Made by a program: the position numbers and the translations under genes. Positions 9,691 to 13,262 of a DNA stretch of 46,391 nt are shown piece by piece. This DNA comes from Candidatus Hermodarchaeota archaeon. Lineage in GTDB: Archaea; Asgardarchaeota; Lokiarchaeia; Sigyniarchaeales; SOKP01. Location: assembly GCA_048885925.1 (NCBI GenBank), contig JBHLLG010000020.1, positions 1 through 46,391 of the forward strand, given 5' to 3'. The notes under the pieces are model-generated. The model had not been told where the DNA came from and searched no databases. It saw nothing but the letters and a program-made list of their open reading frames with translations. How positions within the stretch are numbered: position 1 is the first letter of the stretch; every line of letters starts with the position of its first letter.

Positions 9691-10329
9691 ATGAAAAAAG
9701 TAATATTATTTGGTCCTCCAGGAGCCGGAAAAGGAACTTTTTCCTCCCAGATTAAAGAGATTTTACCAGAAATTATACATATTAGTACTGGAGATATCTT
9801 TAGAGAAAATTTAAAGAATGAAACCCCTCTCGGTTTAAAGGCTAAAACTTATATGGATAAGGGTGAATTAGTCCCTGATGATGTTACAATTGAAATGGTA
9901 AGAGATAGACTAAACAAAGATGATGTTAAGAAAAATGGATTTATTCTTGATGGATTTCCTCGGAATATTTCTCAAGCAGAAGCTCTTTCTAAGATGACAG
10001 AAATCGATAAAGTTATTTTACTTAATGTACCGCAAGATATAATAATAAAAAGAATACTTGGACGCTACTCTTGTCCAAACTGTGGAGAAATTTATAATAA
10101 ATACTTTATGAAGCCAAAAAAGGAGGGAATTTGCGACAAATGCAGTAATAATATAGAATTTAAACAAAGACCTGATGATACAGAAGAAACTCTAAAAAAT
10201 CGATTAGAAGTATATGATAAAAATACAAAACCCTTAATTAAATATTATAAAAACCAAAAATTAGTCAAAGAAATTGATTACTCCAACAAATTACCTGAAA
10301 AAAAAGTAAAAAAAGTTATTGGAATATAA
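9691..10329 (+). CDS. adk: Adenylate kinase (bacterial/eukaryotic long type, Zn-binding LID)
   Basis: Motifs GPPGAGKGT, HISTGDIFR, GELVPD, GFILDGFPR, CPNC..CDKC LID and QRPDD. Confidence 0.93.
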   Translation: MKKVILFGPPGAGKGTFSSQIKEILPEIIHISTGDIFRENLKNETPLGLKAKTYMDKGELVPDDVTIEMVRDRLNKDDVKKNGFILDGFPRNISQAEALSKMTEIDKVILLNVPQDIIIKRILGRYSCPNCGEIYNKYFMKPKKEGICDKCSNNIEFKQRPDDTEETLKNRLEVYDKNTKPLIKYYKNQKLVKEIDYSNKLPEKKVKKVIGI

Positions 10330-10355
10330 AATTTTTATATTTTTTTTGATTATTT

Positions 10356-11108
10356 ATGAATCCTAATATTTGTATAACTATTCCCATTAAAACAAATCAG
10401 TTTGATAAAATTTCTGCTTCCATTAAAAGAGCATTAAATGAAAAACCTGAATTTATTGAATTAAGATTTGATTTTATCAAGAATATAGAAGAATTAACCA
10501 GTGAATTAATTATTAATTTAAAAAAGATGTGCCATCCTACAGCATGCTCAATTTTTACATTTAGAAATTATCTTGAAGGAGGAAATATACAAATTAGTGA
10601 AGGTAAACGATTTAGTATTATTGAATCTCTTATTAATGCTAAACCTAATTATATTGATGTTGAATTACAGAGTAATTTTACTCAGTTGAATCAAATATTA
10701 AGCAATGCTAAAAAAAATGATGTAAAAATTATTGTTTCATATCATGATTTAAAAAAAACTCCTTCTTATAAAGATGCCTTGGATCTTATAGAAACGTTAA
10801 AAATGGAATTCATTAATAAATGTTTATCTAATTTGGAAGATAGTGAGGATATTATCTATAAATTTGTGTTCACGGTTCAAAATTTTGAAGATAACATAAT
10901 ACCACTAAAAATATGTAATTATTTTAGAGAAAAAAACCAGAAAGTAATATCTTTTTGTATGGGAGAAATGGGAATTTTCTCAAGAGTTCTATGTCCTTTA
11001 GTGGGTTCATTTTTAACATATGTTTCGTTAGATGAAAAAGTAGCACCAGGGCAAATTAATATCAAAACAATAAAAGAACTTTTTAATTTATTGATAAATA
11101 ACCTGTAA
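10356..11108 (+). CDS. aroD: Type I 3-dehydroquinate dehydratase
   Basis: Motifs IELRFD, IFTFR...EGG, YIDVEL, IVSYHD, FCMGE.G..SR and APGQI. Confidence 0.92.
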   Translation: MNPNICITIPIKTNQFDKISASIKRALNEKPEFIELRFDFIKNIEELTSELIINLKKMCHPTACSIFTFRNYLEGGNIQISEGKRFSIIESLINAKPNYIDVELQSNFTQLNQILSNAKKNDVKIIVSYHDLKKTPSYKDALDLIETLKMEFINKCLSNLEDSEDIIYKFVFTVQNFEDNIIPLKICNYFREKNQKVISFCMGEMGIFSRVLCPLVGSFLTYVSLDEKVAPGQINIKTIKELFNLLINNL

Positions 11109-11169: not shown

Positions 11170-12375
11170 ATGGTAATCCATTTTGCTTTTTTGTTTCATA
11201 TATATCAACCCCCCGTACAGATTCCTCTCGTAATTAAACAGATTGTAAATGAGTCCTACAAACCTATTATGGAAGCGTTAAGAGATCATCCTGAGGCAAA
11301 GATTACTTTAAATATCAACGGTACTTTAACTGAACAACTGCATGATTATGATTATGACGATTTGATTGGATTAATTACTACCCTTGCCTCAAATGGGCAA
11401 ATTGAATTTACTGGGTCTGCTAAATTTCATCCTCTGCTTCCCTTAATTCCAGAACCCGAAATTAAGCGTCAAATAGAATTGAATAATCAAACTAATCGAC
11501 ACTTTTTTGGAAAACTTTATAATCCTCGTGGATTTTTTCCTCCTGAAATGGCAGTGAATGGAGAAGTATTTAAAACAGTTAAAAAGAGAAAATTTGATTG
11601 GATGATTATGAGCGGAATTGCTAATACATTGCCAGAATTTCCTACTAATAATATATCCGTACATCCCAATGGATTAAAAGTGTTATTTAGAGATGATTAC
11701 ATCTCAATTGATTGCGCATTTGATAAAATAAATAATGTTGAAACGTTCGTTAATAGATTAAGATATAAAAACACTAAAGATGATATGTACATAATCATAG
11801 CAATGGATGGAGAAACATTTGGACACCATGTTAAACATGCTATACATGACTTTTTAGTCCCATTGTTTCAAACTCTCCCTCACAGAGATGATGTTAAAAT
11901 CTGTACAGTATCAGAAATTGTTAATAGATTCCCTAAAGGATTTACACAAGTTCCGCGAGATTCAAGTTGGTCGACCATGCCGTATGACATCGCTAATGAT
12001 GTTCCCTTTCCATTATGGTTCGACCCTGACAATGAAATTCATATAGAACAACATAAATTTTTCATGTATGCTCTTACGCTGATTCATTTAGCCGCTAAAT
12101 ATAGGGATAGTATGAATGAAGATAAGAAAAGAATTTTCAATAATGCAAGAAATCTTTTAGATCGAGGAACTCACAGCTGTCAGCAATGGTGGGCATCACA
12201 ACGACCTTGGTATTCTCCTGATATGATTCTACGCGGATTAAATGAAATTCTTATGGCAAGTGTGAACGCTAAGCGTAGTATTCCTGAGAATATTCCAGAT
12301 ATTAAAGAAGCTATGGAATTAATAATGAATGATATGCTAAAAGCTCAAAATAAAATTGTATTATCCTTAATGTGA
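11170..12375 (+). CDS. Glycoside hydrolase family 57 protein
   Basis: Motifs HIYQP, ESYKP, HPLLPL, FFPPEMA, AMDGETFGHH and SSWS. Confidence 0.9.
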   Translation: MVIHFAFLFHIYQPPVQIPLVIKQIVNESYKPIMEALRDHPEAKITLNINGTLTEQLHDYDYDDLIGLITTLASNGQIEFTGSAKFHPLLPLIPEPEIKRQIELNNQTNRHFFGKLYNPRGFFPPEMAVNGEVFKTVKKRKFDWMIMSGIANTLPEFPTNNISVHPNGLKVLFRDDYISIDCAFDKINNVETFVNRLRYKNTKDDMYIIIAMDGETFGHHVKHAIHDFLVPLFQTLPHRDDVKICTVSEIVNRFPKGFTQVPRDSSWSTMPYDIANDVPFPLWFDPDNEIHIEQHKFFMYALTLIHLAAKYRDSMNEDKKRIFNNARNLLDRGTHSCQQWWASQRPWYSPDMILRGLNEILMASVNAKRSIPENIPDIKEAMELIMNDMLKAQNKIVLSLM

Positions 12376-12432
12376 AAATTTGATGCGTAAAAAATAGAAA
12401 AATAAATAAAAAAAGTCATTTTTTACATATTT

Positions 12433-12669
12433 TTAATTCTTCTTGAAAAGATTTCCACAATCTCCACATTTAACGCTTCGAGAGTCTCAGCGGAAGAAGC
12501 TGAACTAACTTTTCCTATACTGGTGTGCCCTGCCTCAGCGGTAGGCTGAATTAGCTTTACCAATACTGTAGTATAGCACATTATTCCTATCTGGCTCCTC
12601 ATGAAGCTTACGTGGATTTTCATTACCACATTGAGGACATTTTACTCGTGAAAATTTATATTCTGTCAT
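12433..12669 (-). CDS. 58-aa zinc-ribbon protein, three exons: 12669-12563, 12533-12517, 12485-12433
   Basis: Missed by the ORF track. The spliced product MTEYKFSRVKCPQCGNENPRKLHEEPDRNNVLYYSMQGTPVYSRSVKCGDCGNLFKKN has paired CxxC knuckles. Exons sum to 107+17+53=177 nt. Confidence 0.85.
12486..12516 (-). other. Putative BHB pre-mRNA intron 2 of the zinc-ribbon gene (31 nt)
   Basis: CAGU-AU|A-GGAA-AA-GUU-AGUUC-AGC-UUC-UUCC-GCUG-AG|A. The junction gives CCA GTA TAC TCT (PVYS). Confidence 0.85.
12534..12562 (-). other. Putative BHB pre-mRNA intron 1 of the zinc-ribbon gene (29 nt)
   Basis: CAGU-AU|U-GGUA-AA-GCU-AAUUC-AGC-C-UACC-GCUG-AG|G. The junction gives AGT ATG CAG (SMQ). Contains an in-frame TGA if retained. 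Confidence 0.85.
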
Positions 12670-12731
12670 GTTTTTTTCCCTTAAGTCTGTTATAGATATA
12701 TAAATATTTAGTAGAGTTTGTAAATTTAAAT

Positions 12732-13262
12732 TTAGGTTTTTAATTTAGTTTTTATAACAATCTCTCGCACAATATTCTTAATTTTTTTATTTGAAGTATA
12801 AATAACAATCTCTGCTGCATCATCATAATAGGATTTGCGAAGATTTAGAATTTTCTTTATTTCTCTTTTAGGATCTTCTTTATCAAGAATTGGTCTAGTT
12901 TCTTTCCCATTTTTTAATATTCTTTTATAGATTTCTTCTGGAGTTGCTTTTAATAATACAATATGACAATTTTTTTTTAAATTTTCAATATTGGTTTTAT
13001 TCAAAACTACTCCACCTCCACATGAAATAACAACTTTCTTTAAGTTAGAAACCCTCTCGCATATTAATGATTCATACTCTCTAAATTTACTCTCACCATC
13101 TGTGGCAAAAATTTTTGGAATTAATTTACCTACTTCTTTAATGATAAGTTGATCTGTTTCAATAAATCTGTAATCATTGCCAAGAAATTTAGTTAAGGCA
13201 TTTCCAATTGTGGATTTTCCAGTTCCCATAAATCCAATAAGCGCAATAGAATTTTTGCTCAT
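12732..13262 (-). CDS. aroK: Shikimate kinase (bacterial AroK type)
   Basis: Motifs IGFMGTGKST, GESKFREYE, VISCGGGVV and RPIL. Confidence 0.93.
   Translation of the reverse strand: MSKNSIALIGFMGTGKSTIGNALTKFLGNDYRFIETDQLIIKEVGKLIPKIFATDGESKFREYESLICERVSNLKKVVISCGGGVVLNKTNIENLKKNCHIVLLKATPEEIYKRILKNGKETRPILDKEDPKREIKKILNLRKSYYDDAAEIVIYTSNKKIKNIVREIVIKTKLKT

Follow-up and report, generated by a model that had tools for sequence, protein, structure and literature searches.

A small zinc-ribbon gene in an Asgard archaeon, probably carrying two bulge-helix-bulge introns around a 17-nucleotide micro-exon

A small zinc-ribbon gene on the minus strand of a 46,391-nucleotide (nt) contig from a Candidatus Hermodarchaeota archaeon (GenBank assembly GCA_048885925.1, contig JBHLLG010000020.1; GTDB lineage Asgardarchaeota, Lokiarchaeia, Sigyniarchaeales, SOKP01) is interrupted by two short inserts, which leave a middle exon of 17 nt between them. 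The contig is referred to below as the window and the genome from which it comes (G000; 3.9 Mb, 95% complete) as the source genome, whose relatives include proteins labelled Promethearchaeota by NCBI. Comparison with related sequences argues with high confidence for one functional gene whose two bulge-helix-bulge (BHB) introns would be spliced by the endonuclease EndA together with RtcB. The initial annotation of the window had proposed a hidden three-exon zinc-ribbon gene with a 17-nt micro-exon and a product of 58 amino acids (aa), and both the homologues of the protein and a script applying the BHB cutting rule agree with that proposal.

A zinc-ribbon gene in three exons

Read from the ATG at 12669, the minus-strand frame begins M-T-E-Y-K-F-S-R-V-K-C-P-Q-C-G, continues to V-L-Y-Y-S and then meets TGA, TAG and TGA, giving a first open reading frame (ORF) of 44 aa when the inserts are kept. 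Beyond these stops, the frame of the same ATG resumes as ..SRSVKCGDCGNLFKKN-stop and ends at 12433. The micro-exon is read in the second frame, where it encodes QGTPV; with insert 2 retained, TAG comes next. The hexamer CAGTAT directly precedes each insert, and on the plus strand the direct repeat CTCAGCGG-N(3-9)-GCTGAA has exactly two copies in the 46-kb window, at 12486 and 12534 (0 in 100 shuffles). The GC fraction peaks at 0.49 over 12450-12549, against 0.16-0.22 in the flanking spacers. Everything that the initial annotation had described here, from the coordinates and frames to the direct repeat, the GC-rich stretch and the shared CAGTAT, is present in the sequence, as are the two stops that it invoked, the TGA reached by keeping intron 1 and the TAG reached by keeping intron 2. 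Computed by script, the spliced product joins exons of 107, 17 and 53 nt into a four-cysteine zinc ribbon of 58 aa (Table 1). The second exon completes a Met codon, encodes the five residues named above, opens a Tyr codon and ends in the second CAGUAU. The exon and intron boundaries agree with covariance-model matches at 12533-12568 and 12485-12522. In another frame, a 68-aa ORF starting with GTG (12423-12629, minus strand) covers the two introns together with every exon join; as an artefact of the interruption, it could be called as a gene by mistake.

Homologues were collected with the 44-aa first ORF as query, giving 33 proteins. Across junction 1, 24 of the 33 read VLYYSMQG straight through; 23 of these 24 go on to [KR]CGxC[GAS], and 22 place PV[YH] and four residues before [KR]CGxC, which is the spacing obtained by BHB-rule removal of insert 2. 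The homologues end in ..KCGxCGxxFKKx. The remaining nine (P0001-P0008 and P0010) are truncations of 42-44 aa, eight of which end in YYSI... and stop within the insert, like the ORF in the window, and P0010 ends in YYSISIAI. Removing 12562-12534 and 12516-12486 restores an invariant Met (AU+G) and a Tyr (U+AC); junction 1 is placed without sliding ambiguity, and a one-base slide at junction 2 leaves the product unchanged. Across 21 full-length homologues, QGTPVY varies little or not at all. The check proposed at the outset, an ungapped alignment of homologues across both junctions, is therefore positive, in 24 of 33 proteins at junction 1 and with insert-2-free spacing in 22. Two homologues depart from this pattern in other ways. 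P0026 (68 aa) carries 12 extra in-frame residues between V-Y and K-C-G, which the gene caller may have translated from an in-frame intron, and P0020 (48 aa) breaks off after V-Y-A-R-N and may be another interrupted copy.

Beyond the alignment itself, the spliced frame carries a record of selection. BHB-rule removal yields an intact protein at 25 of 25 intron-bearing loci, with YYSMQGTPV[YF]-xxxx-KCGxC and the stop at its usual place. The ratio of nonsynonymous to synonymous change (dN/dS), estimated by the pooled Nei-Gojobori method among intron-bearing loci, comes to 0.043 over the 22 codons that follow intron 1 (synonymous proportion pS 0.72, nonsynonymous proportion pN 0.094), 0.007 for QGTPVY and 0.074 for the 30 upstream codons. 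Because the spliced downstream frame is under purifying selection, a decaying gene would be excluded on this evidence.

The product is predicted to be a small zinc ribbon with a function left unassigned by Pfam, Foldseek and the protein atlas. No Pfam family exceeded its cut-off for three of the four proteins scanned, and the fourth, P0029, marginally passes CxC5 (27.6 vs 26.9 bits). An AlphaFold model has two long strands and a mean predicted local distance difference test score (pLDDT) of 78.5; a Foldseek search of the PDB had 0 matches with E <= 0.001 and ranked the MqsA zinc ribbon first (E 0.21), and the protein atlas returned unnamed clusters only (0.91). As a separate observation, the source genome encodes a 339-aa protein (L002:1432-2448, minus strand; contig 80, domain at about 10289-10423) with two gelsolin repeats (Pfam Gelsolin, 98.5 bits), the C-terminal end of which (residues 291-337) is homologous to the small zinc ribbon (hhalign probability 96.65%, E 4.8e-10). 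Similar matches of ~335-340 aa occur in most genomes of the genus, and they may hint at a cytoskeleton-linked role for the zinc-ribbon domain.

Table 1 Features of the interrupted gene and its surroundings in the window. Helix strands are listed with the introns to which they belong; a slash between bulge bases marks the cut.
Feature	Position	Strand	Description
Exon 1	12563..12669	-	107 nt; 35 codons and AU of the Met-36 codon (Met-35 in P0009 numbering); P0009-P0033 align
Exon 1 end	last six bases CAGUAU	-	supplies exon strand of helix H and two bulge bases
Intron 1	12534..12562	-	29 nt; predicted relaxed BHB (HBh') type
Intron 1 helix H	exon CAGU 12568-12565 with intron GCUG 12539-12536	-	bulges AU/U and AG/G
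Intron 1 helix h'	GGUA 12561-12558 with UACC 12543-12540	-	plus inner GC/GC extension
Exon 2 (micro-exon)	12517..12533	-	17 nt; G + CAG GGC ACA CCA GUA + U
Intron 2	12486..12516	-	31 nt; probable diverged copy of intron 1
Intron 2 helix H	exon CAGU 12522-12519 with intron GCUG 12491-12488	-	bulges AU/A and AG/A
Intron 2 helix h'	GGAA 12515-12512 with UUCC 12495-12492	-	compensatory relative to intron 1
Exon 3	12433..12485	-	53 nt including TAA stop; AC completes Tyr, then S-R-S-V-KCGDCG-NLFKKN
T-rich tract	12389..12414	-	between stop codon and convergent GH57-like gene; read from sequence
AT-rich box TAAATTTAAATTTA	12721..12734	-	50-65 nt upstream of start codon; overlaps shikimate-kinase stop

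A shikimate kinase gene lies immediately upstream on the same strand in 26 of the 27 genus loci with flanks, and a convergent GH57-family gene lies downstream in about half of them. The T-rich tract behind the stop codon is likely to be an archaeal oligo-T terminator, and the AT-rich box, which is conserved upstream of the gene in L015, L016, L018, L041 and L042, is a possible promoter element. Elsewhere in the window, the ORF at 10356-11108 encodes a putative 3-dehydroquinate-dehydratase-like protein.

Bulge-helix-bulge pairing of the inserts

The published BHB rule asks for a 4-base-pair (bp) helix H, 3-nt bulges with cleavage behind the second bulge base, and an inner helix h'. A scanner built on this rule recovers both inserts at the bonds that homology defines. 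In each, H forms with 4/4 pairs, h' has 4 bp and the outer helix has length 0. When the introns were shuffled, a 4-bp H with an h' of at least 4 bp was reached at these bonds in 6 of 20000 cases for intron 1 and 16 of 20000 for intron 2. Local minimum-free-energy folds of 43 and 45 nt give exactly H, a 3-nt bulge and h' for both introns. Both H and h' close the 5' bulge, one on each side; at the 3' bulge, H is the only closing helix. The motif is of the relaxed HBh' form and not the strict hBHBh', because no outer helix forms beside the 3' cut. This bears out the weak outer helices and relaxed HBh' type described at the outset, given the outer-helix length of 0 and an adjacent register in which 48.9% of cells are paired. 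The internal hairpin TTCAGC/GCTGAA, noticed first in the initial annotation, is rejected as the functional structure, as it has 87.3% of cells paired, no two-sided change and a result no better than shuffles; the pairing that is conserved is that of exon CAGU with intron GCUG, together with the inner helix.

Across 60 related genomes, some copies of the gene are uninterrupted and the others are split at one shared place. At the 25 split loci examined, intron 1 is always 29 nt long and always lies between AU and G, and both the AU before it and the G after it are invariant in 23 of 23 species. These 23 species were aligned to examine covariation in the BHB core, comprising H and an h' of seven pairs, with 500 column shuffles and five measures. 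In this core, 95.2% of cells are paired and 8 of the 11 pairs show two-sided changes; none of the five measures was equalled in any shuffle (0 of 500), and slid pairing registers are paired in 14.7-50.2% of cells only. Helix H pairs in 100% of cells across 21 distinct sequences, with changes from CG to UG or UA and from UG to UA or CG, including a compensatory double change between exon and intron (CG to UA). Likewise, h' has 92.5% of cells paired, and all seven of its pairs have changed on both sides.

Other members of the family carry inserts at further sites. In G028 (L018), intron 1 is missing and a 32-nt insert follows V-Y-K, with H formed by UUAU and AUAA, AAA bulges and an 8-bp h'; its removal gives V-Y-K-T-L-L-K-C-G. 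Besides intron 1, G015 (L028) has an insert of 30 nt (H 3/4, h' 9 bp) that lies one codon further on, making the gene a second three-exon case, with a middle exon of 24 nt. Stop-containing inserts of 30 nt also occur at the V-Y-K site in L050, L085 and L095, three of 80 metagenome loci kept from 129 confirmed, and in the genomes G073 (L136/L095) and G140 (L137), and those of L050 and L095 fit the strict core. Each relative's insert, whether after V-Y-K or V-Y-A-K, can be drawn as a BHB in which cuts by the rule would restore frame and length. One 57-codon gene would have four BHB-type insert sites by this count; a single gene was examined, and no hot-spot status is claimed for it.

Splicing machinery and competing explanations

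The source genome encodes a catalytic subunit of EndA in one 198-aa ORF (contig 22, 7621-8214; PF01974, 101.7 bits; PF02778, 33.8 bits). Its best relatives of solved structure, aligned over residues 18-198, are 3p1z_B (E 5.5e-38), 3ajv_B and 2cv8_A, which we take to be crenarchaeal catalytic (alpha) EndA chains. RtcB is present as well (569.6 bits). The BHB interpretation is supported independently by covariation in 23 species, by purifying selection downstream and by the EndA and RtcB genes. The accessible portions of one study attribute to Asgard archaea an (alpha-beta)2 EndA with an L1 loop and state that only such enzymes cut non-canonical motifs (PMC5829648), and those of another describe Asgard tRNA genes as heavily interrupted and report two EndA paralogues in 44 of 60 genomes (bioRxiv 10.64898/2026.10.13.758758). 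ARAGORN predicts 31 tRNA genes in the source genome and calls introns in 19 of them, and many tRNA genes are probably too interrupted for recognition. Some of the called introns are very long (146 and 1335 nt) and may be false calls.

In the proposed pathway, exon CAGU and intron GCUG would pair to form a 4-bp central helix in each intron. The 5' cut would fall within a 3-nt bulge (AU/N), followed by the inner helix of GGUA with UACC or GGAA with UUCC, and the 3' cut would fall two bases past GCUG (AG/N). EndA would cut both sites of both introns, and RtcB would then join the three exons, rebuilding Met (AU+G) and Tyr (U+AC).

Several results weigh against splicing of this kind. The energies of the local folds are not significantly stable (z -0.6 and -1.06), a fold of 131 nt prefers other pairings over the BHB (z -0.35 vs shuffles), and an internal hairpin competes for GCUG. 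The outer helix h is unformed at the 3' bulge, where 48.9% of cells pair and two of the four pairs never do. A displaced 5-bp helix between exons, GUGCU with GGCAC, is 93.9% paired, yet its covariation is weak (8-14 of 500 shuffles as good) and only suggestive. Among the relatives, the inserts of L085 and G140 (both judged by hand) and the second insert of L028 (H 3/4) fit only if one mismatch is allowed, and the BHB of L095 was missing from its local fold. Searches with the alpha protein and with PF01974, up to an E of 10, gave no second (beta) EndA paralogue in the 95%-complete source genome. Finally, splicing is inferred here and not observed in RNA.

A search for sequencing runs that contain the stretch gave no RNA run with it, only one run of unknown kind (share 0.20) and three metatranscriptomes with almost none of its sequence words; compared with positions 12300-12800 at 85% likeness, these four runs gave one contig piece, at 12300-12345, and none on the gene. 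Among metagenome loci L045-L124, where a sequence pattern had located the gene, and the stored database proteins, there was no match to the spliced product of an intron-bearing genome, the best reaching 87% in nucleotides (L046) and 91% in protein (P0012). The whole source genome was also screened for ORFs interrupted by a BHB, with H at 4/4, an h' of 5 bp or more, an intron of 15-60 nt and no fewer than 35 open codons before it and 15 after it. This census gave 3281 candidates, with no excess over the 3333 and 3347 obtained at registers slid by +2 and -2; it is too noisy for fewer than roughly a hundred true cases, and its limits exclude the introns of the present gene, with their h' of 4 bp.

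Could the inserts stay in the mRNA, with ribosomes bypassing them or shifting frame, in the style of phage T4 gene 60, to make a near-full-length protein? Purifying selection downstream is equally expected under such recoding, and each insert has a stop soon after the break and can form a hairpin. Programmed bypass of the gene 60 type, however, has matching take-off and landing codons flanking the gap, and none match here, the exon ending in AGU AU and the bases before CAG being GAG G or GAA G. Moreover, the invariant Met codon exists only after AU and G are joined (23 of 23 species), two separate events would be needed in the source genome, and the pairs that covary are those of the BHB, the simple hairpin being without covariation. 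Recoding is accordingly considered very improbable. Removal by a route other than EndA and RtcB, be it another nuclease-ligase pair, self-cleavage or excision at the DNA level, would account for the missing outer helix of a strict BHB and for the EndA beta subunit not being found. Group I and group II self-splicing introns have a ribozyme core of hundreds of nucleotides, for which inserts of 29-32 nt are far too short, and an Rfam scan of the window gave 0 matches. In independent inserts at four sites, the cuts would fall at positions set by the BHB rule. As for excision from DNA, the assemblies of 34 species all carry the insert, and no insert-free DNA form of the same species was seen. Another route of removal is thus also given little credence.

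If the inserts were instead disruptive, the gene would be decaying, with a 44-aa N-terminal fragment or nothing made. This would suit the 42-44-aa proteins annotated by public gene callers at such loci (P0001-P0008, P0010). Yet the interruption is kept at one site and at one length in 34 of 53 species of the genus, at all 25 loci examined the downstream frame is intact, with both cysteines and an unchanged stop position, dN/dS downstream is 0.043 at a pS of 0.72, and double changes within the insert preserve its structure. Decay is held to be extremely improbable.

History of the introns and relation to known systems

The distribution of the introns was traced with a covariance model, R1, built from helix H and intron 1, with intron 2 left out of the training set. 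R1 finds one copy of intron 1 at the same site in 34 of 53 genus genomes (25 of 40 in a smaller set). Only the source genome has two matches, and intron 2 occurs in no other of the 53. The model scores intron 2 at 30.3 bits (E 7.8e-5 genome-wide), the next match having an E of 5.6 among the 150 of ~4100 candidates scored. Because a model of intron 1 alone finds it, intron 2 appears to be a diverged copy of intron 1, specific to the species and recent, placed at the second CAGUAU site. The two differ by a compensatory change from U-A to A-U in h', and the empty site CAGTAT/A is present in some relatives, G023 and G017 among them. Tandem duplication was considered as the origin of intron 2 and rejected, since what follows intron 2 does not repeat what follows intron 1.

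Intron 1 seems to have a longer history. On a shikimate-kinase tree of 26 genus genomes, the intron-1 label needs two changes, and a single change is possible; the mean for shuffled labels is 6.2, with 0 of 500 shuffles reaching so low a number. The pattern fits one old gain within the genus followed by vertical descent. In a class-wide sample of 150 genomes, the gene is found in 115 at E <= 1e-10. Within the genus, 32 copies in this sample are split at site A, 12 are uninterrupted and one is split elsewhere, and in other genera all are uninterrupted except in two genomes of one genus. The gene occurs intron-free, with one intron or with two introns within a single genus.

The known archaeal mRNA substrates of the tRNA endonuclease, according to the accessible portions of PMC10485636 and PMC7714728, are the coding sequence of cbf5 in Crenarchaeota and the 5' leader of HVO_1309 in Haloferax, and more probably remain. 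For cbf5, which encodes a pseudouridine synthase, these sources cite Watanabe 2002, Yoshinari 2006 and Yokobori 2009 on the BHB intron in its mRNA. As far as these sources describe it, crenarchaeal cbf5 resembles the present gene in having a short intron in its coding sequence, a relaxed BHB, a presence that varies among related species and a host lineage reported to have a broad-specificity EndA. The present case differs in its host gene and in its Asgard (Loki-type) phylum, cbf5 itself being contiguous in the source genome, and in having two introns, a 17-nt middle exon, four sites across relatives and introns of 29-32 nt. HVO_1309 of Haloferax volcanii is likewise an mRNA, and so neither a tRNA nor an rRNA, that serves as a substrate of the splicing endonuclease (PMC7714728, PMC10485636); unlike the present gene, it is described there as having its intron in an untranslated leader, where no frame is interrupted, and as being processed by a homodimeric EndA. 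The tRNA introns of Asgard archaea and Thermoproteales, in the accessible portions of bioRxiv 10.64898/2026.10.13.758758 and PMC5829648, share the motif, its relaxed forms, the occurrence of several introns per gene, repeated gains and related copies at different sites. In tRNA, the fold of the molecule itself provides the exon half of the motif, whereas here that half is coding sequence and the product is a protein.

Full-text literature searches, supplements aside, gave no report of a BHB intron in an Asgard protein gene, and none of a protein gene with two BHB introns and a 17-nt micro-exon. The initial annotation had called a multi-intron protein gene in a prokaryote highly unusual, and this assessment stands, as the reviews, in their accessible portions, name two spliced archaeal mRNAs and the full-text searches gave no two-intron example. 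Measured against these portions, the locus would add a third host gene for mRNA splicing by the tRNA endonuclease, and the first such gene from Asgard archaea, to which eukaryotes are more closely related than to any other prokaryotes. Together, the related loci form a comparative series that can serve as a natural data set on the gain and retention of BHB introns in coding sequence. Gene callers cut such genes to 42-44 aa in public databases, and Asgard genomes probably contain further split genes of this kind that are overlooked or wrongly annotated.

A broader interpretation, put forward tentatively and judged less probable than its opposite, is that BHB introns are still spreading into Asgard coding sequence. 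On this view, intron 1 would recently have been transposed within the gene to the second CAGUAU site, giving intron 2, and the move, whether through reverse splicing or through cDNA, would have needed an exon match of only 4-6 nt. Two more sites of the gene would have received unrelated mini-introns in independent events, spread over two or more genera and additional metagenomic lineages. If this is true, EndA-dependent mRNA introns with micro-exons would be general, and so far uncounted, in these genomes, and splicing might couple expression of the zinc-ribbon protein to the RNA-splicing capacity of the cell.

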